Made by a program: the position numbers and the translations under genes
The notes under the pieces: model-generated
What the model was told of the DNA's origin: nothing
Seen by the model: only the letters and a program-made list of their open reading frames with translations
The model's database searches: none
From: Candidatus Saccharimonadales bacterium
GTDB taxonomy: Bacteria > Patescibacteriota > Saccharimonadia > Saccharimonadales > UBA10212
Direction: 5' to 3'
DNA: 64,000 nucleotides
Assembly (NCBI GenBank): GCA_035758565.1
Contig: DASTXL010000002.1
Coordinates: 19,118 to 83,117, forward strand
Part shown: in pieces, positions 5,029 through 62,502 of the stretch
Layout: each line of letters opens with the position of its first letter
Position numbering within the stretch: position 1 is the first letter of the stretch

Positions 5029-5081
5029 TAAAACAACCACCTCCCAGGTGGCAGTTTTATTTATGGCGGGCCCGACCGGAT
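5029..5081 (-). repeat. orphan copy of the tRNA-Asp 3' end (17 nt incl. CCA) plus its downstream terminator hairpin
   Basis: 5029..5081 is near-identical to 5201..5253. Differences are confined to the hairpin loop/stem (cctccc vs ctttgc). Confidence 0.85.
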
Positions 5082-5235
5082 GAACGCTTGAGCTACTGCC
5101 TGCACCATATGCTCGGAGTAAACTCCTGCGCGTATGGCTTGTCATCGAACCGCGTCTACGCCGACTTCGGTTCGCATCGCAGACAAGGTCTGCCCAAAAT
5201 TAAAACAACCACTTTGCAGGTGGCAGTTTTATTTA

Positions 5236-5312
5236 TGGCGGGCCCGACCGGATTCGAACCGGCGATCTCCTCCGTGACAGGGAGGCATGTTAGGCCTCTA
5301 CACCACGAGCCC
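5236..5312 (-). tRNA. tRNA-Asp (anticodon GTC), CCA encoded
   Basis: Reverse complement: GGGCTCG acceptor, CCTCC-CTGTCAC-GGAGG anticodon arm, GCCGG-TTCGAAT-CCGGT T arm, G-CCA. 77 nt. Followed (minus strand) by an A-run/hairpin/T-run terminator at 5201..5233. Confidence 0.9.
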
Positions 5313-21923: not shown

Positions 21924-22282
21924 TACTCTTATGCTAACAGATTTACTGCTTTAAGGCTGACAAAAACGCACTTTGATGAAGAGCCAAACTACTCCTACTT
22001 TTATATGGACAAAATATGTACTTTTAAAAAGTACCAAGCTATTCCAACTTTGTGCCGACAAAGTTGGACAAAACTCTCGAGCCTGGTTCAAAAACCAGGC
22101 GTTCATTCAGGCACCAAAATTAAGTGAACCTTGCGGAACTCACTAACGTTCAAACAGTCCTCGGTTCTGCCTAATTTTGGCTATTCATTCACCCTGTTTT
22201 TGAGGGCTCGAATTATTTATAACCAACGTTGGGTCTGGAGTTTTCCAGGCTTAAGAAAACAGGTTAATTTGAGCGAGCGAGT

Positions 22283-22374
22283 ACTTGTTTAAAAAAGTGG
22301 GTTAAGCCTAGTGCAGCCGGAGCCTGCCCGACCTGCGGGCGGCTCCGCGCGAAACGCACACTTTTTAAACAAGT
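22283..22374 (-). terminator. large nested stem-loop immediately downstream of pilA
   Basis: ACTTGTTTAAAAA(A)GTG pairs with CACTTTTTAAACAAGT and encloses a second CGGAGCC/GGCTCCG hairpin. It starts 8 nt after the pilA stop codon. Confidence 0.45.
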
Positions 22375-22381
22375 GCGAGCG

Positions 22382-32947: not shown

Positions 32948-33570
32948 TTATGAGTAGTCACGTAATGTTAGAAGCTTTTTTGGTGTTCGACATATTTTTG
33001 GCTGGCGCGGTGGCTGCCGAAGCCTTGCGTCATGCCCTGGCTCACTATCGGCCGCATAAGCATGATGCCGAACACGATTTGCCCCCAGGCGCCCACCTAA
33101 CTCCAGCCATGCGCGAAAAGTTGCTTGAAGACGCCCAAGCCAACTTCGAGACTGTGATGCATTCGGCCGCCCGTGATTTGCAGAAAGACTTAGCCGCAAC
33201 TGCCGAAGACATCAAGCAAGAAATCGCCAAACTTGGCGAGCAAGCCAAGAATGAAGAGTTGGAACACTACAAAGCCACAGTGGCTGAACTGCAAGCCCAA
33301 ACCAAGAACGACATTGCCGGGACCGACAAAGAACTAGCTGCCCAGAAAGCTGAAATGAAGACCAAGTTAGCTGAAGAAATGGCCGCCGAAAAGAAACAAT
33401 TGGTTGATCAAATGAATACTAAACTCGCTGATGCTATCGCTTCCTTCTTGACCGAAACCCTAGGCGCTGAAGTCGATCTTGGCGCCCAAAGCGCCTACCT
33501 AACAAAGATGCTTGACCAGCATAAAGATGAACTAGCCCAGGAGTTTGCCAGTGAGCAAAACGAACAATAA
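32944..33570 (+). CDS. atpF: ATP synthase subunit b-like (one TM + long coiled coil)
   Basis: N-terminal TM helix followed by an Ala/Glu/Lys/Gln-rich helix of about 150 aa. Assigned from operon position. 4-nt overlap with the upstream gene. Confidence 0.6.
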   Translation: MIMSSHVMLEAFLVFDIFLAGAVAAEALRHALAHYRPHKHDAEHDLPPGAHLTPAMREKLLEDAQANFETVMHSAARDLQKDLAATAEDIKQEIAKLGEQAKNEELEHYKATVAELQAQTKNDIAGTDKELAAQKAEMKTKLAEEMAAEKKQLVDQMNTKLADAIASFLTETLGAEVDLGAQSAYLTKMLDQHKDELAQEFASEQNEQ

Positions 33571-34051
33571 ATTAGTTCTAGACGAAGCCATTAGTTCGGT
33601 TCAAGATCTTCGGGCCGCCATTATGGAATTGCGAGAATACGCCCGCTGGTTTGCCCATGACTCTATCAAAAAGCAGGTCAAGGCTAAGGGCGGCAAAAAG
33701 CCGGCTCCGACTCTCTCGACACCGGCAGACACAATTCTTCGCCAGTGGACGGGCGGCAAACCAACCGTTACCAGCCTAGACGAGTTAATCTCTACGTTAG
33801 AAAGCTATACCAACACCGCGCCGCAAATCAGCATCACGCTAGCTGCCCCGCCGCCGGCCAGCCTTAAAAAAACACTGGTTGCGTGGTGCCGCAAAAATCT
33901 TAGCCATAATGTGCTGGTGAACTTCCAGTTCAATTCTACGATTTTGGGAGGTATGGTTTTGCGTTCCGGCAGCCACGTTTACGACTGGTCGTTTAGAAAA
34001 CAAATCTTAGCCGGCCGCAATAAATTCCCGGAGATCCTCCGCAATGCCTAA
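33545..34051 (+). CDS. atpH: ATP synthase subunit delta (OSCP)-like
   Basis: The C-terminal part (ISITLAAPP...VNFQFNSTILGGMVLRSGSHVYDWSFRKQI) matches the OSCP C-terminal pattern (..liGG..v..g....D.S....l). Non-ATG start. Confidence 0.55.
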   Translation: MPVSKTNNKLVLDEAISSVQDLRAAIMELREYARWFAHDSIKKQVKAKGGKKPAPTLSTPADTILRQWTGGKPTVTSLDELISTLESYTNTAPQISITLAAPPPASLKKTLVAWCRKNLSHNVLVNFQFNSTILGGMVLRSGSHVYDWSFRKQILAGRNKFPEILRNA

Positions 34052-34062
34052 GCTGTTAGCTA

Positions 34063-34150
34063 AGGGAAAAGAGCAGCCCGAGCAAAAATCACACTTTTTG
34101 CCCGGCGCGATGAGGAAAACCGTAGGTTGTCCTCATAAGGCGAAACGCCA
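34063..34150 (+). repeat. two-hairpin intergenic element, copy A (atpH-atpA spacer)
   Basis: GGGAAAAGAGCAGCCCGAGCAAAAATCACACTTTTTGCCCGGCGCGATGAGGAAAACCGTAGGTTGTCCTCAT. Hairpin 1 is at 34078..34105 and hairpin 2 at 34110..34136. Homologous to 62350..62430 with compensatory changes. Confidence 0.75.
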
Positions 34151-34161
34151 GTGGAGCCGCC

Positions 34162-36189
34162 ATGTTTGATAATCCAAAATTCCAGAAATTAGTTGAGGCC
34201 GACAATCTAACCGGTGAAGTTGTAGCTACCAATAGTTTTATTGTCGAAGTCAAGGGTCTGGAGGGTGTACGACTGGGTGCCCAGGTCTTGTTCGAAGACG
34301 GCCAGCGCGGGCTGGTGCGCGAAGCTTACGGCGACCGCGTAATTTTATTTAACATTGACTCCGAGCGTATCGAACCCGGCACTCTGGCAGTGGTCGAAAA
34401 CGATACATTAAGCGTACCAGTCGGCAAAAATCTGGTTGGACGGGTTATTAGCCCTTTGGGCGAAGCCCGCGACGGCAAGGGCGCCGTGGCCGCTACTAAA
34501 ATGGCCGGTATTTTTAACCAAGCACCCGGCATTATGGACCGCAGCGTGCTCAACGAACAGCTGGTCAGCGGCGTCACGGCCGTCGACATGTTCTTCCCTG
34601 TTGTACTCGGCCAACGTATCGCTATCTTGGGCGACTCCAAAGCCGGTAAAAGTACTTTTTTGTCGCAGCTATCGGCCAACCAGGAAGGCACCAATCGCAT
34701 AGTTATTTACGTTTTGATCGGCAAACGCAAAGTCGACGTGGAGCGCCTACTGTCCAACTTGCGCGAATCCGGTGCCATGAAGCACACCATCGTGGTGATG
34801 GCCGATATCTTCGATTCTTTGACTCAATCATACTTGGCGCCATACGCCGCCTGTGCCATGGCCGAAGAATTATGGTACGGCGGCGAAGACGTAATTGTTA
34901 TTTACGATGACCTTTCCAGCCACGCCGAGGCCTACCGCCAGCTGTCTTTACTGCAAGAGGTCGACCCAGGTCGCGATTCTTTCCCGGGCGATATTTTTTA
35001 TGCCCACTCATCTTTGCTGGAGCGCGCCGGCAAACTTTTAACCAACATGAAGACGCTAACCGCCCTGCCAGTGGTCATGACACCGAACGACGACATTACA
35101 GGCTATCTTTCTACCTCGATCATGTCTATTACGGATGGTCAGATTGTTTTCGATCTTGGCTTGTTCCGTGAAGGTATCCGCCCGGCCGTTAATGCCGGCC
35201 TGTCCGTTTCGCGCGTTGGTGGCCAAGCGCAAACTCACCGCCAAAAAGGCGTTACCAGCACCTTATTTCAAAAGCTTGCCAAATATACCCAGGCCGAGGA
35301 GTTCTCGCACTTCGGCTCCAGCCTAAGCAAAGACGCTACTATTGATTTGCGCCTCGGCAAGCAAATCTATAGTATTTTGCAGCAGCCACCTTCTGAATTA
35401 CACTCGCTGGTTGATCAAGAATTAATGTTAGAAACGGTTCTTTTGGGAGGCGGACAGGTAGATATCAACACAGCTGGCTTAAAAGAGGCTGTCAAAAAAG
35501 TAACGCCTAAGCCCAAAGACGAAAAAGATTTTGACCGCATCGAAGCCGATTTGCTTAAGAAATTCACTGTTCAGCCGGCCGGCGCCGCGGCTCCAGCTAC
35601 GCAAGCCCCGGGCCAACCGCCCGCCCCAGGTCAGCCTAGCGATAATAAAGACAACAAGATCGATGTAAAAACCGAAGACAAAGATAAAGACAATAAAAAA
35701 GAAGAATCTAAAGAGTCTGATAAGTCCAAAGCGCCCGAGCAAAAGACGGAAGAAAAACCAGAGCAGCCACCAGCCCCGCAACAGAAGCCAGAAGAAAATC
35801 AGGCCGAGGTGGCGCCAGCAGAGGCCGGAGCCGAAGCTAAACCGTCTGAGCCAGAAACCCAAGCGCCCATTCAAACCGAACCGAGATCCGATCAAAGCAC
35901 CCAGCAGGGCTCAGAACCAAAGTCCGAGCCAAGCGCTGAGCAAAAAACAGAAGCAGCCGAGCCTAAGCCAGATGAGGCCGTATCGGAATCTAAACCAGAA
36001 GCAGCCCAGACGCTTTCGACTGAACCGCCTAAACCAGAGGAGACACCGCAGCCGAAACCTAAGCGTCCGCTAATCAAGGCTAGTGTCCGTCACCGCAAAA
36101 AGAAGATTCAATCAGAGCCACCCAAGAAATCCCGCATCAAACCGCACGCCCAACTAAAACGCAAGAAAGAGAAATCTCGTGCGCGTTAA
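34162..36189 (+). CDS. atpA: F1 ATPase alpha-like subunit with ~220-aa Pro/Glu/Lys-rich C-terminal extension
   Basis: Divergent P-loop (GDSKAGKST), ITDGQIVF, and RPAVNAGLSVSRVGGQAQ alpha signatures. Residues from about 455 to 675 are low complexity and end in a strongly basic stretch. Confidence 0.85.
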   Translation: MFDNPKFQKLVEADNLTGEVVATNSFIVEVKGLEGVRLGAQVLFEDGQRGLVREAYGDRVILFNIDSERIEPGTLAVVENDTLSVPVGKNLVGRVISPLGEARDGKGAVAATKMAGIFNQAPGIMDRSVLNEQLVSGVTAVDMFFPVVLGQRIAILGDSKAGKSTFLSQLSANQEGTNRIVIYVLIGKRKVDVERLLSNLRESGAMKHTIVVMADIFDSLTQSYLAPYAACAMAEELWYGGEDVIVIYDDLSSHAEAYRQLSLLQEVDPGRDSFPGDIFYAHSSLLERAGKLLTNMKTLTALPVVMTPNDDITGYLSTSIMSITDGQIVFDLGLFREGIRPAVNAGLSVSRVGGQAQTHRQKGVTSTLFQKLAKYTQAEEFSHFGSSLSKDATIDLRLGKQIYSILQQPPSELHSLVDQELMLETVLLGGGQVDINTAGLKEAVKKVTPKPKDEKDFDRIEADLLKKFTVQPAGAAAPATQAPGQPPAPGQPSDNKDNKIDVKTEDKDKDNKKEESKESDKSKAPEQKTEEKPEQPPAPQQKPEENQAEVAPAEAGAEAKPSEPETQAPIQTEPRSDQSTQQGSEPKSEPSAEQKTEAAEPKPDEAVSESKPEAAQTLSTEPPKPEETPQPKPKRPLIKASVRHRKKKIQSEPPKKSRIKPHAQLKRKKEKSRAR

Positions 36190-36197
36190 ATTAATAA

Positions 36198-36330
36198 GGG
36201 AAAAGAGTAGCACCGGTCCGGCAATTGCCGGATTTGGATTTATTCCAAAAGGTGCGTTGAGGAAAACCGGGGTCCCTGCAAAGTTTACTTTGTGGGGTGA
36301 TGGTACCGTAGGTTGTCCTCAAAAGGCAGA
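36198..36330 (+). repeat. two-hairpin intergenic element, copy B (atpA-atpG spacer), expanded
   Basis: It shares the 5' TAAGGGAAAAGAG motif and the TTGAGGAAAACC...CCGTAGGTTGTCCTCAA hairpin (36257..36322) with copy A. The stem changes are compensatory (A-T to T-A). Confidence 0.65.
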
Positions 36331-36345
36331 GCGGAGCGGAACCGC

Positions 36346-37200
36346 ATGAGACGCGCTAACCAAATCGAAAAAGACAGCGAGCAGATTGAAACCGTCGAAG
36401 ACCTGACCGGTGTTTTTGAAAGTATTGCCTCGACCCAGGTTGCCAAAGTCAAAAACAAAGTTGAGCTTTCTAAGCAATTCTTTCAGTTGATCTGGGCTCG
36501 TTATACGGCTGTTCGTTTTGACCCATCAATGCGCATAACCAACCGCGATATTGGCACCACAGACAAAACCGCTTTTATTGTTATCTCTGGCGAAGCCGGT
36601 TTGTCAGGCGACATCGACCAACGCTTGATTGAATCAATGCTGCAAAGCTACGACGCTAAGACTTGCGATATCGTCGTGCTTGGCACCCACGGCGCCACTC
36701 AGCTAAAGCAGCGCGGCGTACCTTATATCAAATTTTTTAAGGTACCAGAAACCGATAAATATATTGATGTAAGCCCGGTGATCAACATCGTGCTGCCCTA
36801 TTCGCGCATCATTGTTTATTACGAAGAATATGTAAGCTTGGGTGTCCAGGAAGTCAAAACCATCGATCTAATCTCCAGCATGCGCGATATGAGCGAGCAG
36901 GCCGACGAAGAGGTTATGACGCCCTTTGATACCATCTTCGAACCGTCGCTCGACGAAATTGCCGAGCAAATGGAAATGACTATGATGACTCTGGCGCTGT
37001 CTGAGGCTATTTTGGAATCCAGTCTGGCCCAAGCCGCCAGCCGCTTTAACGCCATGGCCGTTGCCAAAAAGCGCGCCCTTGAGCTGCTAATGCAATACCA
37101 GATGGAATTTCACCGGGCTAAACGCGGCGAAAGCGACCGCGCCCTGCGCGAAGTTATGGTAAGTTTAAAGAAGAAAAAGCATCGGGTGGACGCGAGATAA
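36346..37200 (+). CDS. atpG: F1 ATPase gamma-like subunit
   Basis: Length and N-/C-terminal helices (final ...AKRGESDRALREVMVSLKK) are consistent with gamma. I prefer the ATG at 36346 (MRRANQIEKD) to the track TTG at 36313, which lies inside the repeat hairpin. Confidence 0.7.
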   Translation: MRRANQIEKDSEQIETVEDLTGVFESIASTQVAKVKNKVELSKQFFQLIWARYTAVRFDPSMRITNRDIGTTDKTAFIVISGEAGLSGDIDQRLIESMLQSYDAKTCDIVVLGTHGATQLKQRGVPYIKFFKVPETDKYIDVSPVINIVLPYSRIIVYYEEYVSLGVQEVKTIDLISSMRDMSEQADEEVMTPFDTIFEPSLDEIAEQMEMTMMTLALSEAILESSLAQAASRFNAMAVAKKRALELLMQYQMEFHRAKRGESDRALREVMVSLKKKKHRVDAR

Positions 37201-37201
37201 G

Positions 37202-38860
37202 ATGGCAACAAAAGCAAAAACTAAACCAGCTGGCAAAAGGGCCGCGCCCAAAAAAATGACGGCCAAATCGGCTAGCAAGGCTAGAAAGGCAGCACCCAGC
37301 AAAGTTGCCGAACCGCAAGCCGGCGGTGCTTTTGTGGGCATCATCAAATCTTTGCGCGGTCTGATGGTTGAGGTTGAAATTTTGGGCGAGCGCCCAGAAG
37401 AAAAAGAGTTGCTCAACGTCGAGGGTCATCCGGAAGTATTTTTGGAAGTAAACTTCTTTAAGGCCGGCTCGGCCGTGTGCCTAAACTTGAGCAACTCGCA
37501 GGTCATGGCCTGCGGCCAAAAAATTACCCGCACCCGCAGCAAAGTTTCGGTGCCGGTTGGGCCAAAAAGCTTGGGCCGGGTCTTTAACGCGCTGGGCGAA
37601 CCGCTTGATAAAGGCCAAGCCGTTACCGAAAACCGCCGGCCAATTTCTGAACCTACCGGCACCCGCAGCTATCGCAATAGCCAAAAGCTGGAGTTGCTTG
37701 AAACCGGGCTAAAAGTTATCGACTTTTTAACGCCGTTTGTTAAGGGGCGCAAAATTGGCATTGTGGGCGGTGCCGGTGTGGGCAAAACGGTGTTAACAAC
37801 CGAGATGATCCATAACGTTAGCCGTAGTAGTAAAAGCCTAGCTATTTACTGCGGTGTTGGCGAGCGTATTCGCGAAGGCAACGAACTTTACGAAACTTTA
37901 AAAGACACCGATGTGCTCAAAAACACGGTGATGTTTTTTGGCCAGATGGACTCCACACCGACTATTCGCTCAATGGTGGCGCCGGCTGCCGCCACAGCCG
38001 CCGAGTACTTCCGCGACGAAGAAGGCAAAGATATCCTGTTCTTTGTTGACAATATTTACCGCCATATTCAGGCTCTAACCGAGCTATCTACCAACCTCGG
38101 TTTAATCCCATCCGAGGGTGGTTATTCGCCGCTAGTTTTTGCAGAGCTGCGTCGTTTGCAGGACCGCTTGAGCTCTACCGAACAAGGCACCATCACTAGC
38201 GTGCAGGCTGTTTTTATTCCGGCGGACGACCTTTCCGACCCAGCTGTGCAGGCAATCAGCCAGCAGCTCGACTCGGTGCTGGTGCTCGACCGCTCCATTG
38301 CCGAGCAAGGCATCCGCCCGGCCGTTAACTTGCTCAAGACTACTTCTTCCCTGCTGACGCCGGCCATTGTTGGCGAGCGCCATTACCAGCTGGCCGGCAA
38401 AGTTCAAGCCATCATGCAAAAGTATGACTCGCTCAAGAACATCATCGCCATCGTTGGCGAAAACGAACTTAGTCCAGTGGACCGCGCCGATTACCAAAAC
38501 GCCAAAAAACTGATTGAATTCTTTAACCAAGACTTCTCGGTTGCCGAGAAGTTCAGCGGCCGTCCAGGCCAGTACTTTACACTCGAGCAAACTCTGGACG
38601 GTATTGAGGCTATTCTGCAAGGCAAAGAAGTTCCCGGCGCTAAACCGGCGGATGCTAAAGCAACAGATAAGCCAGCCGACGGAGCTCCGGCCGCACCAGC
38701 CCAGGGACAAACTCCGGCTCCGGCCGAGGGCCAAAAACCAGCCGAAGGCCAAAAACCAGCCGAAGGCCAAGCTAAGACACCGGACAATAAGACCGAAGAA
38801 GAGTCTAAAAAGAAGAAAGGGGCCTTAAGTGGGCTTACTAAAGCGTTCCACAGGCGGTGA
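37202..38860 (+). CDS. atpD: F1 ATPase beta subunit with Lys-rich N-terminal and Pro/Ala/Glu/Lys-rich C-terminal extensions
   Basis: Walker A GGAGVGKTV, and DNIYRH.QA...S...G..PS..GY.P motifs. N-terminal extension of about 45 aa (MATKAKTKPAGKRAAPKK...). The C-terminal tail contains three AEGQKP repeats. Confidence 0.9.
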   Translation: MATKAKTKPAGKRAAPKKMTAKSASKARKAAPSKVAEPQAGGAFVGIIKSLRGLMVEVEILGERPEEKELLNVEGHPEVFLEVNFFKAGSAVCLNLSNSQVMACGQKITRTRSKVSVPVGPKSLGRVFNALGEPLDKGQAVTENRRPISEPTGTRSYRNSQKLELLETGLKVIDFLTPFVKGRKIGIVGGAGVGKTVLTTEMIHNVSRSSKSLAIYCGVGERIREGNELYETLKDTDVLKNTVMFFGQMDSTPTIRSMVAPAAATAAEYFRDEEGKDILFFVDNIYRHIQALTELSTNLGLIPSEGGYSPLVFAELRRLQDRLSSTEQGTITSVQAVFIPADDLSDPAVQAISQQLDSVLVLDRSIAEQGIRPAVNLLKTTSSLLTPAIVGERHYQLAGKVQAIMQKYDSLKNIIAIVGENELSPVDRADYQNAKKLIEFFNQDFSVAEKFSGRPGQYFTLEQTLDGIEAILQGKEVPGAKPADAKATDKPADGAPAAPAQGQTPAPAEGQKPAEGQKPAEGQAKTPDNKTEEESKKKKGALSGLTKAFHRR

Positions 38861-39101
38861 GCTGCAGGTTGTTGCCCGGGCGCCCTTTAACGTTTATTAC
38901 GAAGGTCCGGCCCAAACCCTGTCGGCAGCCAATAAAATTGGTCAGTTTGATGTGCTGCCCGGCCACGCCGATTTTTTCTCTGTTTTGAGTCCTGGAGAAG
39001 TCAGTATTAATACCGGCAGCGGCGAACCAGTCACCTTTCCTATAAATAATGGCATTATTACTGTCCGCGACGACAACGTGATGCTTTTTTGCAATATGTA
39101 G
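38829..39101 (+). CDS. atpC: F1 ATPase epsilon-like subunit (beta-sandwich only, 90 aa)
   Basis: LQVVARAPFNVYYEGPAQTLSAANKIGQFDVLPGHADFFSVLSPGEVSI fits the epsilon N-terminal domain pattern. No C-terminal helical hairpin. The GTG start overlaps atpD and the exact start is uncertain. Confidence 0.6.
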   Translation: MGLLKRSTGGELQVVARAPFNVYYEGPAQTLSAANKIGQFDVLPGHADFFSVLSPGEVSINTGSGEPVTFPINNGIITVRDDNVMLFCNM

Positions 39102-39106
39102 CATTA

Positions 39107-39133
39107 ATGAGACACCCCTTCGGGGTTTCTCAT
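39107..39133 (+). terminator. stem-loop with UUCG loop directly after the ATPase operon
   Basis: ATGAGA-C-ACCCC-ttcg-GGGGT-T-TCTCAT, 6 nt after the atpC stop codon. It resembles hairpin 2 of the repeat family (62399..62425). Confidence 0.5.
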
Positions 39134-39691
39134 CGGATCTGGCGGAGTTAATCCGCCTTCGCCTTCGGCGAACCGCCCCTTCTCTTCCCGAGAAAGGATC
39201 TCTCTTTTCCCCTACTGGTTGATCCAGGCTCGAGCCTCGATTATTCCTCATGGGTCCGGGCATCGGCTTTTTCTTAAGAGGGACAGAACGTACAAAAAGC
39301 CAGTGAACCTGCGAAACGGCGGGCGGACTTGGCTATAGTTTTGGCTTTACTCACTTTCAGAACGCCAAAATTCATCAGTTTCCTCGAGCCTGGGCGAACT
39401 TTGGCCTCTCTAAAACTTCGGCATCTTTCGTGCCCTGATTTGGCGTTGTGAGAATCAGGCGTCCTTGGGTGCGAGAGCTCTCAAACAAGCCTCCTCTTTT
39501 TCCTCCTGCTGACTGATTCAGGCTCGAAAAAACAGAGGGAGAAAGCGATTAAAAACAGGCAGAATCGAGGATTGTCTGAGCGACAGCGAGTTCCGCAGAT
39601 TCACCAGTTTTTATGAGTGAGCGACCATCTTGTTTTTGAATGCCTGCCGGTTTTTGGGTTCCGTTTTTGGCAGTCAAAAATGGAACGAATG

Positions 39692-46658: not shown

Positions 46659-49600
46659 TTGTTGAGTTTCCGACGAAAGGTAGTTTCTTATACCCTGTTG
46701 GCAGGTCTCTTTGTTATTGCTCCGTTAATGATTTTTAGCCCGGCCGAAGCGGCTAGCGGCATCAACCAACAATTGAACTTTCAGGGCCGTTTGCTTAACT
46801 CGCAAGGGGCGGTCGTACCTGATGGTTATTACAATATGGAATTTAAGATCTACCAGGATGGCGATGGCCAAAGCGCCGGAGACACCACCGGATCCCCAAC
46901 CGGAAGCTTAAAGTGGACCGAAGACTGGCTCAATACCGGCTCCACCCAAGGTGTTAAAGTCGTAAATGGCTATCTATCGGTCCAGCTAGGTTCCCGCACC
47001 GCTTTTGGTAGCAGCGTTAACTGGAACTCCGATACTTTGTGGCTGTCTATGCAGGTCGGCAACACCAGCAACTGTACAATCAGCACCGGTTTCCAAACGG
47101 ATTGTGGCGGAGACGGCGAAATGACCCCCATGAAACGCCTGTCTTCTACCCCGTACGCCCTGGATGCCGGCATGTTAAACGGTTTAACAAGCGCCGCTTT
47201 TGTGCAGCTAGCCCAAGGTGTCCAGACAGATGCCACCAGCGCCAGCAGTATCTTTATCAACAAGACTGGCTCTAGCGGCAATATAGTCGAGCTGCAAAAA
47301 GGCGGTTCGGACGCCTTTGTAATCGGCAATACTGGTGACGTCAGCTTTGGCAATAGCGCTAACCACAGTATTTCGATTGCTACGGCAGCCGCCTCGAGCG
47401 GCGGCAAGGGCCTAACGGTAGCCGGCGGCGCGGCCGGCACCGGCACGGGTGCCCTAGCCGGTGGTGCCTTAACGCTTAACGGTGGAGCTGGTGGCGGTTC
47501 TGGTGGCGCTGGTGGCAACGTTAATATTGACGGCGGCCTGGCCAACGGCGCTGGCTTCAATGGCACTATAAATATTGCTACCAATAATGTTGGCACTGTA
47601 AATATTGGCAAGGCTGCCTCGGCCAGCAATATCACCGTTCAGGGCGGCAACGGCTCAACCGCCGTAAGTATCCAGACATTAGCCGCCGGCACTATAGGTG
47701 TCGGCTCAAATAACATTGCTAACACCATCCAGATTGGCAGCACTTCGCTGTCTTCGGGCACGCAGACAGTTAACGTGGGCAACAATAACACCTCTGGCGG
47801 CACAACCAATGTTACGATCGGGGCCGGCGGTTCAGCGGCCGGCGGTACAACAGCCATTCAATCTAAAGGCAACACCACGATAGCTACAAACGGTACCTTA
47901 CGGGCAACTTTTGATAACTTAAATAATCTTTATCTGGGCAACGGTACGAGTAATAGCGCCCCGAGTAACTTCGCTATTACCGGAACGGCTAGCAGCACAT
48001 CTGGTACGGCCGGGGGCACTCTAACTGTAAAAGGTGGTGACTCCTCCACCGGTAATACTAATGGCGGCAATTTGATCTTGACTGCTGGCGCTGGGGCTGG
48101 GACTGGAACAAGCGGCAGTGTAATTGTTAAGCCCAACGGCTCAGACAGCACCACGGCCTTTCAAGTACAAAAGTCAGACGGCGTAACCGCAATGCTAACT
48201 GTCGATACCAAAAACGGTCTGATTGGCTTAGGCGCCGCACCGACAGCAGGCGGTGCTTTAGTTCAAGTCAGCACTACCTTAAGTGCCGGCACCTCCTTAA
48301 CGGCCCCTAGCGTGATAGCTACAACCGGAGTTTACACTGGGGCCAGTGGCGGTACTGAGCGCATCGACGGTAGCGGCAACCTAGTTAACATTGGTAATAT
48401 AACCGGCTCGGCCGCTGTGGCCTTTCAAGGTGGTGCTGGTACTAGTGGCTTAACCGGCGGTAGTGGCGGTGGTGTCAGCATCACAGCTGGTGCTGGCGGT
48501 AACGGCACCGCAACCAATGGTAACGGCGGCGACGTTACTATATCTTCCGGTGCAGCCGGAACCGGAATAGGCACGGCTGGCACAGTTGGTTCGGTAATCG
48601 TAAAGAACCCAGCCAACTCTACCACAGCTTTTCAAGTGCAAAACTCTACTAACAGCAAGGCTGTTTTGGCTGTGGATACTACCAATAATCAAATTGTGCT
48701 GGGCTCTCCCGGAGCGGGCGGCCTGAGCGGACAAATCAAGCTCTACTTTGCTGGCAGCACCGGTAGTATTACTTTGATACCACAAGATCCTGGATCTAAT
48801 AACTACAACCTGACTATTCCTTCCGGTGGCGGCACCATTTGTACCACGGCCAACGGTTTATGTTCCGGTGGTGGCACGGGTAGCGGCGGTTTGGCCAAAA
48901 ACGCTGTTGATAGCTCTAGCGCCGATGCTGGTACCGGCTACCTATATACCTTCACTAACTCTGGTAATGCCGGTAGTGGTGGCGTTTTGAGCCTAGATAA
49001 CGGCAATAACACCGGGCCGGTTGCTTATCTTAAGGGCACCTCTGCTAAAGCCCTTCAGGTGCAAACTTCGGCTGGTTACAACGCCTTAGTACTCGACACT
49101 TCGACTACTCCTGCCCACCTTAAAGTTTATGACGGCACTGCCACAGGTGCTTATGCTGATATTTCTTACAATGACGGCACCAGTTCGGCTATTTTTACAG
49201 CCTCTGCCGGCACTGCTCAGTTCGGCGGCGGCAGCGTACCTACCTTATTAACGGCCGGCTCCGGACAAGCCGTAACCATAACTGGCCATACCAGCTCTAG
49301 CTGGACTCTTGATAACGGCGATTTGACGCTCGATGTGACTGGTGCGAGCGCCAATTTAAATATTGGCACCGGCGCACTAGCTAAAACAGTTAATATAGGC
49401 AATCAAACGGGCGCTACGGCCGTTAATATCAAGGCTGGTAGCGGCAATATTAATTTTATCCCTGTTGGCACCGGTAACACAGGCGTGGTTATTAAGCCAA
49501 CCAATGCCAGTACTCTGGCATTTCAGGTCCAAAACTCTAGCAGCAGCAAGTCCGTAATGTCTGTTGATAACAGCAATAACCAAGTAGTAGTTGGTGATGG

Positions 49601-52600
49601 TAGCGCCTCTGGCATTACTGGCAAATTAGCCTTTAGCTACACCGGAGCCAGTGGCAAAATTATTCTGACTCCTAGTGGCAGCCCCGGCTCGAGTACCTTT
49701 ACCCTGCAATTACCGTCAGAGAACGGCACGCTTTGTACGACGGCCGGCTCGGCCGCTTGTTTGGCGGTTTATGGTGGTGGTACGGCTGGTAACTTTATAG
49801 CTAAAGACGCCGTTGACACCTCTAGTGCCGACTCCGGTGCCGGTGCCCTGCTAACCCTAACCAACTCCGGCAGCGCCGGTTCAGGCAATGTGCTTAAACT
49901 TAATAACAATAACAATACTGGCTCTACTTTAGACGCCACTACAACCGGCAATCCAGGTGCGGGCAAGGCTGTGATTTACGCCGAGAATAAAAACGCTGCC
50001 CCAACCGGCAACCTAATTGATCTTGAATCAGGCACTGTGCCCACTAGCATGTTTAGCGTTGACGCAGCCGGCAATGTTAACAATGCCGGCACACTAACCA
50101 GCGCCGGCGATATAACCAGCTCAACCGGAATAATTAACAGCGATACCTTAAGCGGCAATGCCCTCACCTTTGGTGGCGCCAGTGCTGCGCTGATCCAGTC
50201 CGCCGCTTCGCAGGCATTAAATATCACTGGTCATACCGACTCCACTTGGTCACTTGATGCCGGCAATTTAACTTTGCAAACTTCGGCCGCTAATTCAACC
50301 CTAACCCTAGACGCTGGCTCTAGTGCTAATGGCACTATAAATATCGGCAATGGTGGTGCCTCTTCTATTAGCGTAGAGGCGGCCAATATTTCTTTGGGCA
50401 ACAATGCGGCCTCTACTGTTCAGATCGGCTCTGCCAGTTTATCCAGTGGCACCCAAAATATTTATATAGGCAATAACACTTCTTCTGGCGGCACAACCAA
50501 CATTGTAATCGGTGACGGCGGTTCGGCGTCTGGCGGTTCAATCACCGTAAGATCTAGCGGCACCGCAGTTTTGTCGGGATCAACCACCAGTGTATCGGCT
50601 ACCGGCACCGCTAGCTTATCTGGTGGCACCACTAATATTAGCTCTACTGGCACAACCACTGTTTCGGGCGCTACAACCAACGTTTCTTCAACTGGGACTA
50701 CCAACATTAGCTCGACCGGCAACACAACTATTGCCACGAACAGCACCACCCGAGCTACCTTTGACACATCTAACCATTTATACCTCGGGAATGGTACGTC
50801 GGCAGCCTCGCCCAACAACTTCACTATCTTAGGAACGAACAGCAGCGCAACTGGCGTGGCTGGCGCAACTGTTTATTTGCAGGGTGGCAACGCTACAGTT
50901 GGCAGCGCCAACGGCGGCAATGTAAGTATTAGCGGAGGCAGCGGTACAGGTACCGGCGTAGCTGGCTTGGTCTTGATATCAACTCCGACTTTCTCTACCA
51001 CCACTAACGATCCGAACTGTTATACCGGCGGAAGTTTGGTATCAACCAGCTGTACCATTGCCCAAGCGTCCGTTGACGACTCTGCCGGAATAATTGTCGG
51101 CTTCTTTAATGTTGGCCAGATCGCCACTTTGCCCAGTCCAACAATTAACATACCGGGGCGAGTTGTTTACGTAACTGCCGCCAATGGTTCGTCTGACTTC
51201 ACGCTGGAAGTTAATGGTGGTGGCACCGGAAACGACATAGCTATGCGCCAAAACACCACAGCCACCATGGTCTGGAGCGGCTCCAAATGGACGGCTGCCG
51301 GCGCCTCTAGTTCCACTACCCTGCAGGCAGCCTACGACAATACCCTGCAGAGCGCCGGTGGTGCCGAACTTGTAGTTAGCCATACCTCGGCAACCAACGG
51401 CTTAACCATTCGTGATAGTTCAATTAACCCAGTTAACGGTACTTTGTTAAGCGTTCAGACTTCTTCAGCCGCTACGCTTATTTCCGTCAATGGCAATGTT
51501 ACGGAATACGCCAGCGATGCTGGCGCTGAAACGGCCGGCAATACTACGAACACCTTCCCGGCCGGCACTTGGTCGACCGTTGGCTCCAGTTCGGTTAGTC
51601 GCTATACAACTGTTGGCAATTACGTTGATACTGGTCAGGCTTCGGTTTCTGTCGGCACTACTACGGCTGCTAACGATGGAGTTAAAAACACTCTCGACAC
51701 CGCGCTCACCGCCAACATGAACTACAACGTCTCGTTTGCCGTCCGCTTGCTTTCCGGCACCTTTACCGATTTGAATGTCTATTACTCTAGTGATGGTACC
51801 ACCGCTTCTGTTGTCTGTACTACCGGCAAAGCCGCTACCATAAGTATTTGGACTAAGATTAACTGTACTTTTGCGGCGCCGGCGAGTGGAATCACATCGA
51901 GTAATGCCATTTTGATCAGGCAGGCATCAAGCGGCACAGCCCGCAGCTTCTATATCGACAATCTGTCGGTAACCATCGCCGCCGACTTTAACTACGCTAC
52001 TGATGGAGGCGTTGACGATAACGCGAACTTTTCTACTAATTGGACCAGTGTAGCTAGCGCTACTGTCAGCCGCAATACTGGCGTTGGTAATGACGCCAGC
52101 GATAGTGCGGAGGTAGATGCCACTACAACTGGTCAGGGTGTGCGCAACGAACTATCTATCAACCCATTGCCAAACACTCTGTATCGAATAACCGTGTACG
52201 TTTCGAGTACTGCCTCCGGTTTTAATAGTTTTACCGTTCGCTATTCGCCAAATGGCGGCACCAACTTTGTTAACTGCGCCGACTATAATACTCAATCTAT
52301 TTCGGATACGGCTAACGCGTTTACCAAAGTAACCTGCTATATAAATACCAGCGGCACAGCCGTTACCGATCCGGATGTCTACTTTACCCAGTCCGATACA
52401 GCTACCCGCACCTTCTACGTAGACACCTTTTCGATGACGTTGTCTACCGACAGTACGCCGAACGTTCAAATCGGTGGCGGCAACGACGGCGGCCCAGTCA
52501 CCCTTCTAACTCTCGACCGAGCCGCTTCTGCGCCAATTGCCTCTAACAACGACGCCTTCTTGGGCTCGATGTACTACGATACTACGCTCGGCAAACTGCA

Positions 52601-53177
52601 GTGCTATGAAGCCGATGGTTGGGGCGCTTGTGGTTCCAGCCCCGATAATATCGTGACCATCTCGCCGGAATACACCAATGCCGTTATGCACGGAACCGGT
52701 ATTGGTACTATGACTTCTGATATTTGTTCGGATACTTTGCACGTCAATGACGGCACTTCTGGCCAACCAACTATCTGCGGCACCAACGAAACTTACAACT
52801 TCTACAAGTGGACCTCGCCGCAAGCCAGTGCTCAAACCTACAGTATTTACGTTACCTATCAGCTGCCAGACACCTTTAAGACCTTTGCTTCTGGCCAGAC
52901 CTCGATTATGGGCCGCACCGATAGTAGCAATGCCACTGTTCAGTACAGTGTTTACAAAGAGGATTCAACCACTGGTCTCTCGCAGTGTGGTCCTACTGTA
53001 TCGGTCTCTACCGGGTCGGTATCTTCGTGGAAAGTAGGCGTAGCCAGCGGTGCCGCTGACCCATCGACCTGTGGATTTGCCCCGAGCGACAGCATTGTAT
53101 TTAAGATCGATGTAGTAGCCAGTCAAAACGCCGATGCTTACGTGGGCAACCTCAACTTCACCTTCAGCAACAAGTAG
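46659..53177 (+). CDS. giant (2172 aa) secreted Gly/Thr/Ser/Asn-rich fibre-like protein with two C-terminal CBM-like domains
   Basis: Signal peptide. Tail-fibre-like N-terminal module (LNFQGRLLNSQG...). Three copies of STTAFQVQNS..SK.V..VD..NNQ.V.G...G..G...., and two ...FYIDNLSVT / FYVDTFSMT jelly-roll-like modules. Continuous ORF, TTG start. Confidence 0.8.
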   Translation: MLSFRRKVVSYTLLAGLFVIAPLMIFSPAEAASGINQQLNFQGRLLNSQGAVVPDGYYNMEFKIYQDGDGQSAGDTTGSPTGSLKWTEDWLNTGSTQGVKVVNGYLSVQLGSRTAFGSSVNWNSDTLWLSMQVGNTSNCTISTGFQTDCGGDGEMTPMKRLSSTPYALDAGMLNGLTSAAFVQLAQGVQTDATSASSIFINKTGSSGNIVELQKGGSDAFVIGNTGDVSFGNSANHSISIATAAASSGGKGLTVAGGAAGTGTGALAGGALTLNGGAGGGSGGAGGNVNIDGGLANGAGFNGTINIATNNVGTVNIGKAASASNITVQGGNGSTAVSIQTLAAGTIGVGSNNIANTIQIGSTSLSSGTQTVNVGNNNTSGGTTNVTIGAGGSAAGGTTAIQSKGNTTIATNGTLRATFDNLNNLYLGNGTSNSAPSNFAITGTASSTSGTAGGTLTVKGGDSSTGNTNGGNLILTAGAGAGTGTSGSVIVKPNGSDSTTAFQVQKSDGVTAMLTVDTKNGLIGLGAAPTAGGALVQVSTTLSAGTSLTAPSVIATTGVYTGASGGTERIDGSGNLVNIGNITGSAAVAFQGGAGTSGLTGGSGGGVSITAGAGGNGTATNGNGGDVTISSGAAGTGIGTAGTVGSVIVKNPANSTTAFQVQNSTNSKAVLAVDTTNNQIVLGSPGAGGLSGQIKLYFAGSTGSITLIPQDPGSNNYNLTIPSGGGTICTTANGLCSGGGTGSGGLAKNAVDSSSADAGTGYLYTFTNSGNAGSGGVLSLDNGNNTGPVAYLKGTSAKALQVQTSAGYNALVLDTSTTPAHLKVYDGTATGAYADISYNDGTSSAIFTASAGTAQFGGGSVPTLLTAGSGQAVTITGHTSSSWTLDNGDLTLDVTGASANLNIGTGALAKTVNIGNQTGATAVNIKAGSGNINFIPVGTGNTGVVIKPTNASTLAFQVQNSSSSKSVMSVDNSNNQVVVGDGSASGITGKLAFSYTGASGKIILTPSGSPGSSTFTLQLPSENGTLCTTAGSAACLAVYGGGTAGNFIAKDAVDTSSADSGAGALLTLTNSGSAGSGNVLKLNNNNNTGSTLDATTTGNPGAGKAVIYAENKNAAPTGNLIDLESGTVPTSMFSVDAAGNVNNAGTLTSAGDITSSTGIINSDTLSGNALTFGGASAALIQSAASQALNITGHTDSTWSLDAGNLTLQTSAANSTLTLDAGSSANGTINIGNGGASSISVEAANISLGNNAASTVQIGSASLSSGTQNIYIGNNTSSGGTTNIVIGDGGSASGGSITVRSSGTAVLSGSTTSVSATGTASLSGGTTNISSTGTTTVSGATTNVSSTGTTNISSTGNTTIATNSTTRATFDTSNHLYLGNGTSAASPNNFTILGTNSSATGVAGATVYLQGGNATVGSANGGNVSISGGSGTGTGVAGLVLISTPTFSTTTNDPNCYTGGSLVSTSCTIAQASVDDSAGIIVGFFNVGQIATLPSPTINIPGRVVYVTAANGSSDFTLEVNGGGTGNDIAMRQNTTATMVWSGSKWTAAGASSSTTLQAAYDNTLQSAGGAELVVSHTSATNGLTIRDSSINPVNGTLLSVQTSSAATLISVNGNVTEYASDAGAETAGNTTNTFPAGTWSTVGSSSVSRYTTVGNYVDTGQASVSVGTTTAANDGVKNTLDTALTANMNYNVSFAVRLLSGTFTDLNVYYSSDGTTASVVCTTGKAATISIWTKINCTFAAPASGITSSNAILIRQASSGTARSFYIDNLSVTIAADFNYATDGGVDDNANFSTNWTSVASATVSRNTGVGNDASDSAEVDATTTGQGVRNELSINPLPNTLYRITVYVSSTASGFNSFTVRYSPNGGTNFVNCADYNTQSISDTANAFTKVTCYINTSGTAVTDPDVYFTQSDTATRTFYVDTFSMTLSTDSTPNVQIGGGNDGGPVTLLTLDRAASAPIASNNDAFLGSMYYDTTLGKLQCYEADGWGACGSSPDNIVTISPEYTNAVMHGTGIGTMTSDICSDTLHVNDGTSGQPTICGTNETYNFYKWTSPQASAQTYSIYVTYQLPDTFKTFASGQTSIMGRTDSSNATVQYSVYKEDSTTGLSQCGPTVSVSTGSVSSWKVGVASGAADPSTCGFAPSDSIVFKIDVVASQNADAYVGNLNFTFSNK

Positions 53178-61269: not shown

Positions 61270-62349
61270 ATGGCTTTATCTATTGGGATTGTAGGCCTGC
61301 CTAACGTCGGCAAGTCCACTCTTTTTAACGCACTAACCGACGCCGAGGCGCTGGCAGCTAATTATCCATTCGCCACAATCGAACCGAACACAGGGATTGT
61401 TCCAATCCCTGACTCAAGGCTAGAGAAGCTGGCTAAACTTTACCACTCTCAAAAAATTGCTCCGGCTACTGTTACATTTACCGACATCGCTGGTCTAGTG
61501 GCTGGGGCTAGTCAAGGCGAAGGTTTGGGCAACCAGTTCTTGAGCCATATCAGAAGCTGTAATGCTATTTGCCAAGTAGTCAGAGCTTTCGATGACCCAA
61601 ATATTCAGCACGTAGCCGGCCAGGCCGACCCCAAGCGTGATATTGAAGTAGTTAATACCGAGTTAATTCTAGCCGATCTACAAACCGTGGAGCGACGCCT
61701 GCCTAAACTCGAAAAAGAAGCCCGCGCTGATCTTAAGCTTAGGCCTTTGGTCGCCACATTAGAAAAGCTCAAGGCGGGCCTTAGCGAGGGCAAGCTTGCC
61801 GGGTCATTTTTAGACAAAGAAGAGTTAGAGGCTATTGCCGACCTGCAGCTTCTTTCTGCTAAGCCTTTTATCATTGTTTATAATTTGGACGAACAGCAGT
61901 TGAATGATCAAAAGCTTAAAGAAAATTTAAGGGCAATAGTCGCTCCCTGTCCGACCGTGTTTGTTAGTGCCAAACTAGAAAGCGAACTCCGGGGTTTAGA
62001 TACCAGCGACCAGGCCGAACTTTTGGCCAGCTACGGACAAGATGAAAGCGGCTTGAACTTGCTTATCCACGCCGCCTATCAGGCATTAGGCTTGCAAAGC
62101 TACCTAACAGCCGGCGAGAAAGAAGTTCGCGCCTGGACCGTGCCAGTTGGCGCCACAGCTCCTCAAGCAGCCGGCGTTATCCATAGCGATTTCGAAAGAG
62201 GGTTTATTGCCGCCCAAGTAATCGATTATAACGACTTGATGGCTGCCGGATCAGAAACAGCGGCGCGAGCAGCCGGCAAACTACGAACCGAAGGCAAAAA
62301 TTACGTTATGCAGCCTAACGATGTAGTTGAATTCCGTTTTAATGTATAG
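61270..62349 (+). CDS. ychF: ribosome-binding ATPase YchF (Obg-like GTPase family)
   Basis: IGIVGLPNVGKSTLFNALT G1 motif, DIAGLV G3, and the C-terminal TGS-like ...IHSDFERGFI.A.VI.Y.D.... Confidence 0.92.
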   Translation: MALSIGIVGLPNVGKSTLFNALTDAEALAANYPFATIEPNTGIVPIPDSRLEKLAKLYHSQKIAPATVTFTDIAGLVAGASQGEGLGNQFLSHIRSCNAICQVVRAFDDPNIQHVAGQADPKRDIEVVNTELILADLQTVERRLPKLEKEARADLKLRPLVATLEKLKAGLSEGKLAGSFLDKEELEAIADLQLLSAKPFIIVYNLDEQQLNDQKLKENLRAIVAPCPTVFVSAKLESELRGLDTSDQAELLASYGQDESGLNLLIHAAYQALGLQSYLTAGEKEVRAWTVPVGATAPQAAGVIHSDFERGFIAAQVIDYNDLMAAGSETAARAAGKLRTEGKNYVMQPNDVVEFRFNV

Positions 62350-62430
62350 TTTCTCGGGAAGATAGCCCGAGCAAATTTCACACAATTTGCCCGGCGCGAT
62401 AAGAAACCCTGGAGGGGTGTCTTATTCAGC
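62350..62430 (+). repeat. two-hairpin intergenic element, copy C (inserted at the ychF 3' end)
   Basis: TTTCTCGGGAAGATAGCCCGAGCAAATTTCACACAATTTGCCCGGCGCGATAAGAAACCCTGGAGGGGTGTCTTAT. Collinear with copy A, with compensatory stem changes (AAAAA/TTTTT to AAATT/AATTT; ATGAGGA/TCCTCAT to ATAAGA/TCTTAT). Confidence 0.75.
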
Positions 62431-62475
62431 GTTATGCAGCCAAATGACGTAGTTGAATTCCGTTTTAACGTATAA
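62431..62475 (+). repeat. second copy of the last 45 nt of ychF (displaced gene end), followed by the terminator
   Basis: It differs from 62305..62349 at 5 positions, all third-codon positions (CCT/CCA, AAC/AAT, GAT/GAC, AAT/AAC, TAG/TAA). Both copies encode VMQPNDVVEFRFNV-stop. Confidence 0.85.
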
Positions 62476-62502
62476 AAAGAGTCCCGTTTTAGAGACTCTT
62501 TT
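62476..62502 (+). terminator. rho-independent terminator (AAAGAGTC...GACTCTTT + T-run)
   Basis: 8-bp stem with a T-rich tail, immediately after the displaced ychF end. Confidence 0.65.

Follow-up and report, generated by a model that had tools for sequence, protein, structure and literature searches.

Four copies of a small structured element, here called E (our label for the element family), occur in the window, by which we mean the whole analysed stretch of 64 kb from a metagenome-assembled genome (MAG) of Candidatus Saccharimonadales (TM7, candidate phyla radiation (CPR)). E is about 85-135 nt long, contains no protein-coding gene, and its copies are related by a common fold, are present or absent at corresponding sites of related genomes, recur in particular genomic contexts, and are conserved in place. 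The family is apparently undescribed. The reading we favour, which we hold with about as much belief as doubt, is that E constitutes a family of small, gene-free, insertional RNA modules of Saccharimonadales, similar to intervening sequences (IVSs) and kept by selection after insertion. Its role at the RNA level is what we infer from strand, fold and position.

Fold and covariation of the element

The first-pass annotation of the window had described copies A and C as collinear, and both are indeed 81% identical over 52 nt without gaps (family D14), with the sequences as first given. The search with a covariance model that it had proposed turned up at least 47 further copies in related contigs. 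Metagenome contigs of the Joint Genome Institute (JGI) were scanned with the pattern AGCCCGAGC-N(6-36)-GCCCGGCGCGAT, which leaves hairpin 2 and the interior of hairpin 1 (P1) free. At least 40 matches show the full architecture, the others being chance matches in GC-rich coding sequence. The covariance model, R1, was built from 40 sequences, and covariation was computed on a MAFFT alignment. With R1, the further copies score 55-101 bits at 41 related loci; about 80 loci of chance pattern matches on unrelated GC-rich contigs reach 31 bits at most. Seven of the 47 further copies do not fit the scan pattern. A sequence-only profile (nhmmer) found no copies beyond the covariance-model set, and scanning viral contigs with the family pattern gave no match. 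The census used in the following comprises 51 copies, the four of the window and 47 among the matches listed, and all counts over copies are to be read within it. Loci of relatives are denoted by L-numbers; the closest relative compared is L007, with 82% identity in AtpG.

The element starts with a 5' purine tail, (UAA/UAG)GGGA(n)GAG(C/U)A, followed by the hairpins P1 and P2, which are linked by one G. In canonical P1, GCCCGAGC and GCCCGGCGC enclose a 16-nt inner hairpin, and their pairing is interrupted by a bulged C and a mismatched A·C; the interior and branches of P1 vary. P2, a polypurine/polypyrimidine hairpin, has 6-7 bp in its outer and 4-5 bp in its inner stem; a conserved A·G mismatch lies between the two, and the small loop accepts an extra sub-hairpin. 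A short third hairpin, P3 (GGC-GNRA/GAA-GCC), is often present. Two types are distinguished by tail and P2 arm, namely type 1 with GGGAAAAGAG and GAGAAAAACC, to which copies A and B belong, and type 2 with CUCGGGAAGAG and GAGAAACCCC, to which copies C and D belong. The four window copies share the parts of the fold, with fold z-scores of -2.3 to -4.8. Predicted folds consist of separate hairpins P0-P3 and reveal no long stem between the 5' and 3' ends; P1 and P2, being one G apart, could stack to a helix some 28 bp long.

Selection on structure, rather than chance palindromes, had been proposed in the first-pass annotation from a few compensatory pairs. All of these pairs are present, and they hold in the 40-sequence alignment, where 98.5% of the cells are paired compared to 85.3% in shuffled alignments, a level reached by none of 500 shuffles. 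Cells changed on both sides number 114 (40.5 in shuffles), and double changes occur in 10 of the 13 pairs that are free to vary. Shifting the 3' partner by 1-3 columns lowers pairing to 38-57%. The covariation statistics thus bear out the proposal. The outer stem of P1 co-varies in copies outside the scan pattern, e.g., GCCGGAGC/GCCCCGC in L117 and L038. Variable pairs include 14 G·U against 4 A·C, and therefore the GGGAA... strand is the one under structural selection.

Copy B had been said to keep the 5' motif and hairpin 2, and this agrees with the 18-mer AACCGTAGGTTGTCCTCA, which bridges loop and 3' arm of P2 and is found, with at most one mismatch, only at A and B (0.04 expected by chance). 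Restricting copy B to these two parts was too narrow: hairpin 1 is kept as well, expanded and branched, as can be seen by comparison with L007. On its own, copy B is not significant in R1 (13.5 bits) because the canonical hairpin 1 is replaced. At the same position in L007, the atpA-atpG spacer, resides a canonical copy (9903-9995, 84.1 bits), in which GCGGAUUUAUUCCGC corresponds to the sub-hairpin UUGGAUUUAUUCCAA of copy B; the sub-hairpin module of P2 is also found in L091 and L033. Similarly, the fourth instance after atpC, taken for a lone hairpin 2, does contain this hairpin but as part of a complete copy on the minus strand, copy D. In reverse complement it carries the 5' motif CUCGGGAAGAG, as in copy C (UUUCUCGGGAAGA), and its hairpin 2, AUGAGAAACCCCGAAGGGGUGUCUCAU, differs from that of copy C, AUAAGAAACCCUGGAGGGGUGUCUUAU, by compensatory changes. 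A second GGGGAAAAGAGA motif precedes the tail of copy D on the minus strand (39212→39201).

A further relation links tail and P2. Read backwards, the tail fits the 5' arm of P2, e.g., ACGAGAAAAGGG versus AUGAGAAAAACC. The lengths of the A-runs co-vary from tail to arm (two with three, four with five, five with six), the tail sequences GAGC, GAU, GGU and GGGC go along with the arms AUGAG, AUAAG, AUAGG and AUGGG, respectively, and in L047 G-runs replace A-runs in tail and arm alike. Within copies the mirror score is 7.35; arms exchanged at random between copies give 6.76 ± 0.09, and none of 5000 such permutations reaches the observed value; by subfamily, the permutation yields 0 of 5000 for type 2 and 130 of 5000 for type 1, all of these tests being inflated by kinship among the copies. 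A search for partners within the element with which the 5' tail could form a Watson-Crick pseudoknot found none, the relation of tail and P2 being a mirror and not a complement. Such a mirror repeat cannot be produced by duplication or inversion. The tail probably lies along P2 as a third strand, possibly in an intramolecular triplex. At the base of P1, the tail runs into the junction from which the purine strand of P2 departs, and an antiparallel placement of tail and purine strand would fit, with G·G-C and A·A-U triples.

Insertion, target duplication and conservation in place

Related genomes reveal sites without E. In L007 and L009, atpH and atpA overlap by a few bases (..CGTAATGTTTGATAA..) and have no spacer, compared to 110 nt with copy A in the window. 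The stop codon of atpC lies 3-35 nt from the convergent gene in L007 and L008; in the window this distance is 590 nt, ending in copy D, and the whole spacer is therefore specific to the lineage of the window. The site of copy C is empty in L132, L133 and L134, where ychF abuts or overlaps a convergent bPH gene. Among the relatives compared, the site of copy B is shared only with L007 and is empty in L008 and L009.

Direct repeats of the target, 17-45 nt in length and scoring far above shuffled flanks, surround ten of the 51 copies; in the other 41, no flanking duplication is detectable. Copy C is bracketed by two directly repeated 45-nt segments of the ychF 3' end (62304-62348 and 62430-62474; family D18, 91% identity), whose alignment score of 35 compares with a maximum of 10 in shuffled flanks; the first-pass annotation does not list this repeat. 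Between duplication and conserved core lie 0-25 nt of non-conserved filler. The duplicated segments are ends of genes: the 3' end of ychF in the window, the 3' end of another gene in L114, and 5' ends with start codons in L128 and L045. Where insertion duplicates the gene end, a gene survives insertion within its last or first 45 nt or so. Where duplications set the ends of the element (copy C, L114, L128, L045, L110 and L018), these ends differ in sequence and show no terminal inverted repeats; neither a conserved tetranucleotide upstream of the copies nor a 3' A-tail on them was seen. Variable duplications together with junction filler argue against a classical cut-and-paste transposase. The junctions are compatible with template switching, with a retro-type insertion, or with homology-facilitated illegitimate recombination after DNA uptake. 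Of the mobile, REP/MITE-like repeat considered in the first-pass annotation (MITE, miniature inverted-repeat transposable element), the inserting family is retained, given the empty sites and the duplications around 10 of 51 copies, and the REP/MITE identity is given up for want of terminal inverted repeats, of a target-site duplication of fixed length and of a REP palindrome.

The repeats around copy C, T1 upstream and T2 downstream (Table 1), differ at five positions, all of them synonymous third positions, and a terminator-like hairpin comes after T2. At synonymous sites the relatives are too diverged to tell which of the two is native at ychF. The ychF locus is also present on a Logan contig from SRR25158471. 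Across pairs of the T1/T2 type, 18 of 18 differences fall on third codon positions (copy C 5/5, L119 6/6, L031 7/7); in L119 (9380-9560) and L031 (400-600), the orphan copy has no start codon. This pattern is contrary to the simple decay of a target-site duplication. In L114, the orphan copy carries a frameshift and non-synonymous changes. Possibly the copy within the gene was replaced by diverged alleles through recombination, with the orphan frozen, or the insert arrived together with the gene end of a donor. Template and variable repeats of a diversity-generating retroelement (DGR) were rejected for these pairs, as the differences are not adenine-specific.

Once inserted, E is conserved. 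Between the window and L007, the four-fold degenerate sites of atpG are 48% identical; copy B and its L007 counterpart agree in 18 of 19 positions of the tail and in about 90% or more of P2, and the inner P1 hairpin has changed from GCGG/CCGC to UUGG/CCAA, i.e., in a compensatory way. Compensatory differences also distinguish orthologous copies in tRNA-Gln leaders (L088, L112) and upstream of secY (L050, L115). By these comparisons, copies do not decay after insertion, either because the host would need them or because misfolding would harm the neighbouring RNA.

Table 1. Copies of E, their parts and associated features in the window
Feature	Position	Strand	Description
Copy A	34061..34151	+	atpH-atpA spacer; type 1; R1 90.5 bits, E = 1e-26
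Copy A, parts (RNA fold)	tail 34061-34075; P1 34076-34108; G 34109; P2 34110-34136; P3 34139-34149	+	tail UAAGGGAAAAGAGCA; P3 GGCGAAACGCC
Copy B	36195..36322	+	atpA-atpG spacer; type 1; fold z = -4.1
Copy B, tail and P1	tail 36195-36209; branched P1 domain 36210-36255	+	tail UAAGGGAAAAGAGUA; P1 domain closed by GCACC/GGUGC
Copy B, P2	36257-36322	+	UUGAGGAAAACC...GGUUGUCCUCAA; extra sub-hairpin in P2 loop, ~36271-36307
Copy C	62350..62429	+	immediately 3' of ychF stop codon; type 2; R1 70.6 bits, E = 2e-20
Copy C, parts	tail 62350-62364; P1 62365-62397; P2 62399-62425	+	tail UUUCUCGGGAAGAUA; P2 AUAAGAAACCCUGGAGGGGUGUCUUAU
Copy D	39107..39216	-	beside atpC stop codon; type 2; R1 36.7 bits, E = 1e-9; fold z = -4.8
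Copy D, parts	P2 39133→39107; branched domain ~39179→39135; tail/P0 ~39197→39178	-	branched domain in place of P1; tail/P0 CCUUUCUCGGGAAGAGAAGG
T1	62304..62349	+	last 15 codons and stop of ychF; upstream repeat member
T2	62430..62477	+	orphan duplicate of ychF 3' end; could encode the same VMQPNDVVEFRFNV*
Doubtful partial copy	22301..22380	+	P1-like hairpin GCAGCCGGAGC...GCUCCGCGCG, no P2; R1 16.8 bits, within chance range (<=31)
atpH, atpA, atpG, atpD, atpC	33545-39101		genes around copies A, B and D
ychF	61270-62349		gene before copy C

Copy A is followed by the atpA Shine-Dalgarno sequence GGAG (34153-34156) and the start codon (34162), copy B by a short hairpin, GGAG and the start codon of atpG (36346). 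AtpA itself (34162-36189) has 675 aa, with a Lys/Arg-rich C-terminal extension of about 190 aa past the Pfam domains, which is common to L007 (636 aa) and L008 (647 aa) and is not found in L009 (501 aa). In AtpD (37202-38860, 552 aa), the Pfam nucleotide-binding domain begins only at residue 169.

The doubtful partial copy lies between the genes for a type IV pilin and a prepilin peptidase, on the opposite strand, and its P1-like hairpin (region 22270-22380) lies within a longer inverted repeat, GAGUACUUGUUUAAAAAAGUG/CACACUUUUUAAACAAGUGCGAG. Another repeat family, X, has copies at 39515-39690 (minus strand) and 22040-22215 (plus strand), which are about 170 nt long, 74-78% identical, and without open reading frame (ORF). 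Each is part of an unusually long non-coding region (~460-590 nt) and precedes, in the same orientation, E or an E-like sequence (copy D and the hairpin at 22301, respectively). The ends of X, ..CACCCTGTTTTT and ..CCCTCTGTTTTTT, resemble the promoter-proximal CACCCCTGTT upstream of tRNA-linked copies of E at other loci (see below), and X may carry the promoter of a non-coding transcript. Furthermore, a 34-nt direct repeat, UCGAGCCUG(G/A)AUCA..CAG(U/C)AGG(G/A)GAAAAGAG, at 39200-39233 and 39494-39527 (read on the minus strand) presents the purine motif of the E type twice, 294 nt apart; no recognisable P1 or P2 follows the copy at 39494-39527.

A layout of target, insert and target as at copy C is also given by a 57-nt direct repeat (5025-5081 and 5197-5253, 93% identical), which comprises the last 19 nt of tRNA-Asp and a terminator hairpin and surrounds a 115-nt insert that is not E. 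Candidate origins of this insert are a past integration at the 3' end of the tRNA gene, of which it would be a remnant, and a different element with the same insertion route. The direct-repeat output is dominated by two adjacent giant ORFs of 2172 aa (46659-53177) and 2201 aa (53262-59867), which contain long Gly-rich repeats of GGTGGNGGN codons. On a relative's contig, comparable ORFs (about 1850-2200 aa, with Kelch-like matches) are found upstream of ychF.

Genomic contexts and candidate roles

Copies of E are frequently associated with stable-RNA genes: 16 of the 51 are situated directly 5' of or inside such genes, all in sense orientation. In at least 12 copies, the 3' end is followed after 3-18 nt by a tRNA gene of the same orientation; nine different isoacceptors are represented. 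A consensus -10 box (TATAAT or TACAAT, followed by CACCCCTGTT) is located 25-35 nt upstream of the element in these cases, so that tRNA-linked copies are inside the pre-tRNA leader. At least two copies directly precede 5S rRNA, and at least two are inserted in the 23S rRNA gene in sense orientation. One of the latter (L117:446-538) occupies the loop of a 23S hairpin at positions 1206-1226 of the large-subunit (LSU) model, just before GGUAGgGGAGCG, which corresponds, by the E. coli sequence, to the helix-45 site of classical IVSs; the other lies near LSU model positions 1720-1760. L117 (1-2997) holds three copies within 2.9 kb of one rRNA operon, two in 23S and one directly before 5S, and its helix-45 insertion has about 45 nt of extra unrelated sequence ahead of the element. 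In L121 (1-10161), the 16S 3' end, tRNA-Ala and tRNA-Ile are encoded at 9084-10161, and the 23S 5' end, which has the same orientation, is at 1-214, at a distance of about 8.9 kb; the copy between the two tRNA genes is antisense, the only one of this kind linked to stable RNA among the matches listed.

Further copies occupy the spacers atpH/atpA, atpA/atpG and rplW/rplB or are located upstream of secY and argS, and the remaining ones are found at 3' ends of genes or between convergent genes. Many type 1 copies start with UAA, UAG or UGA, and many end beside GGAG and ATG. The first-pass annotation had also considered an intercistronic processing or stability element. Pre-tRNA and 5S leaders, the 23S loop and operon spacers make an RNA role plausible; the restriction to the atp operon, or to intercistronic spacers, does not hold.

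According to the favoured reading of E as an IVS-like RNA module, the element would be co-transcribed with its host gene, and the GGGAA... strand would fold on its own into tail, P1, G, P2 and, where present, P3. E would persist at those places where a compact genome tolerates or trims extra RNA, i.e., in pre-tRNA and pre-5S leaders, in variable loops of 23S rRNA, and in spacers between or at the ends of cistrons. Overlapping gene ends would be kept whole by an insertion that duplicates up to 45 nt of its target, the 5' edge usually supplying UAA, UAG or UGA and the 3' part adjoining a Shine-Dalgarno sequence and start codon. In RNA, E would then act as a self-contained spacer or processing module, and selection by the host would maintain the fold, similar to an intron.

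Several points weigh against this reading. About 9-12 of the listed copies, mostly of type 2 (the CGGGAAG/AACCCC subfamily), are antisense to both neighbours, and therefore a role as sense RNA does not extend to every copy. On the opposite strand, the conserved A·C mismatch in P1 would become a G·U pair, and the folds show no evident terminal stem of the length expected for a classical RNase III site. The mirror repeat may indicate a structure at the DNA level: purine-motif triplexes are best known for DNA, and a reading with single-stranded DNA thereby stays alive. As to the sample, 40 of the 47 further copies were found via a search pattern in which the outer stem of P1 is prescribed; the sample is thus biased toward one subfamily, and the invariance of that stem is uninformative. 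We take the family to be specific to Saccharimonadales, the contigs carrying the metagenome copies being taxonomically unclassified. Finally, transcription, cleavage and host benefit are all steps that we infer.

A possible but clearly less probable explanation is a cis-acting RNA element of the host, with insertion merely as the origin of new sites. E would be a portable endoribonuclease site or a 5' barrier to 5'→3' exonuclease, and in highly expressed transcripts it would set apart tRNA, 5S, 23S and cistron segments or stabilise them. Purifying selection on tail and P2 next to neutral sites of about 48% identity, the strong enrichment at stable-RNA genes with all 16 copies in sense orientation, and the presence of copies in the atp, S10 and spc operons agree with such a function; in addition, the conserved unpaired nucleotides, the A·G mismatch and the GNRA-type loops of P3 suggest a defined tertiary fold. 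However, close relatives do without E in expressing these operons and genes, the five tRNA genes of the window manage without it, and antisense copies exist. Its distance to the 5' end of the tRNA varies between 3 and 18 nt, and hence E cannot itself define the mature end.

A bolder version of the favoured reading appears rather unlikely to us. It holds that E is a new mobile structured RNA element of bacteria, resembling both IVSs and short interspersed nuclear elements (SINEs), which has a tail triplex, is copied via RNA or template switching, and is excised from, or protects, the precursors of rRNA, tRNA and mRNA. If true, copying of this kind would explain why duplications vary, why junctions contain filler and why copies in highly transcribed genes tend to be in sense; E would also bring its own fold for processing or for blocking an exonuclease.

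It is unlikely that E is primarily an element of DNA, whose single-stranded hairpins and mirror tail are recognised by a transposase of the HUH type or by another transposase or recombinase, comparable to REP/RAYT or to palindrome-associated transposable elements (PATEs). Its two different subterminal hairpins with mismatches and bulges would suit such an enzyme, and the polypurine mirror repeat fits a purine-motif triplex similar to H-DNA. The asymmetry between the strands agrees with it as well. Highly expressed genes are usually co-oriented with replication, and the orientation of E would reflect the direction of replication instead of transcription. On the other hand, IS200/IS605 and RAYT make no duplication and use a fixed target, which is at odds with the long, variable duplications and filler at E, and no conserved tetranucleotide flanks the copies. 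No transposase was identified in the 64 kb of genome available. Moreover, a copy that no longer moves needs no conservation at orthologous sites, yet conservation is what we observe there.

We regard a new small self-cleaving ribozyme or self-excising intervening sequence as very unlikely, even though several features would be in character: a conserved core of modular build to which peripheral hairpins can be added, conserved nucleotides at the junctions, and positions at a 23S IVS site and next to tRNA genes; as no known family matches, it would have to be a new class. E is unlike the hammerhead, hepatitis delta virus (HDV)-like, twister, pistol and hatchet cores (Rfam, by eye), its spacing to the flanking mature ends varies, and no pseudoknot-type Watson-Crick covariation was found. 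Most improbable are genes of trans-acting small RNAs, with 3' ends that RNase P would generate at the tRNA downstream or that P3 would protect: the -10-like box ahead of tRNA-linked copies and the two alternative 3' modules (UUAC ahead of a tRNA, or P3) could be seen in this light, but most copies are embedded in operons or rRNA without a promoter of their own, and no single-stranded seed is conserved except the tail, which co-varies with P2 in the same molecule.

Few known genomes are as compact as those of CPR bacteria (Patescibacteria), with overlapping genes and hardly any spacers, and E shows a mobile sequence surviving extreme streamlining, even in essential operons, pre-tRNA leaders and the large rRNA; its route of survival would be self-folding combined with duplication of the gene ends that it interrupts. 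As an RNA motif with about 50 sequences, strong covariation and a possible triplex of tail and hairpin, it is directly accessible to tests by RNA-processing and structural biologists. The covariance model can be used for annotation, where copies now appear as unexplained spacers or spurious ORFs, and as a lineage marker.

Relation to known families and systems

A match to a family already described would have removed the novelty of the repeat. Full-text literature searches found no description of the family. Rfam 15 at gathering thresholds reported only five tRNAs in the whole window; at E <= 10 with lax filters it gave no match in 33500-39600, the region of copies A, B and D, and in 19 copy-bearing loci only rRNA and tRNA were matched.

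Individual candidates were rejected on structural grounds. Strand order and core motifs of hammerhead (CUGAUGA...GAAA) and HDV-like ribozymes (nested P1/P2/P3) do not fit by eye. The boxA of NusB/E, suggested by GCUCUUUUCCC at the ends of the reverse strand, was discarded since the tRNA, 5S and 23S contexts show the other strand to be sense. An intrinsic terminator does not apply: the U-tract is lacking after P2 and P3 of all four window copies, of which A and B reside inside an operon. With its 85-135 nt, two or three different hairpins and a purine tail in place of one imperfect palindrome of 20-40 nt, E is not a REP/BIME element; inverted doublets are missing, and GUAG (compare the REP head GTAG) is found only in the P2 loop of some copies. 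A MITE is excluded by the lack of terminal inverted repeats and by duplications that are variable (17-45 nt) instead of short and fixed. The PATEs derived from IS200/IS605 share two hairpins with E, but not its long duplications, and no fixed tetranucleotide flanks E.

On a more general level, E resembles REP/BIME, ERIC, Correia (NEMIS), RUP/BOX and MITE-like repeats in being short, gene-free, multi-copy, hairpin-forming and presumably co-transcribed, with insertion polymorphism between strains, and Correia elements also alter mRNA processing. In contrast to REP/BIME, ERIC, Correia and RUP/BOX, E is strongly covarying, conserved in place, and found inside rRNA and 5' of tRNA genes. Long flanking duplications of variable length are shared with the IS1634/IS1549 type of the IS4 family, IS1634 being the textbook bacterial case of long variable direct repeats. 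These elements are 1.5-2 kb in size and have a transposase and terminal inverted repeats, both of which E lacks; moreover, the junctions of E contain variable filler. Mycobacterial interspersed repetitive units (MIRUs) and Rickettsia palindromic elements (RPEs) are likewise small repeats that survive in operons and genes of compact genomes with reading frames kept, and MIRUs overlap stop and start codons of the flanking genes. However, MIRUs form tandem arrays with small ORFs and RPEs are inserted in frame and translated, while E is a single untranslated structured unit.

The RNase III hairpins between early cistrons of phage T7 are similar to E as hairpins with internal loops beside the ribosome-binding site downstream, and by this analogy E may work like T7 processing hairpins in the atp, S10 and spc operons. 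T7 sites are neither mobile nor multi-copy, and their cleavage has been shown experimentally; cleavage at E is predicted. With a SINE-like retroposon, E has in common duplications of variable length and imprecise junctions.

Among the systems compared, the IVSs of 23S rRNA (helix 25/45; Salmonella, Leptospira, Coxiella) are alike in their sense position in 23S, seen in two copies of E only, in their sporadic distribution and in their occurrence in reduced genomes. Classical IVSs are confined to rRNA and have a long terminal stem that is cut by RNase III. Unlike these, E is mostly located outside rRNA, has a conserved multi-hairpin core and shows no long terminal stem in the predicted folds. 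A study of rRNA insertions in CPR bacteria reports that in Saccharibacteria 64 of 66 are short (<=250 bp) and bear no features of introns or homing endonucleases, and leaves them without further characterisation (PMC11270868). E is a candidate identity for at least some of them.

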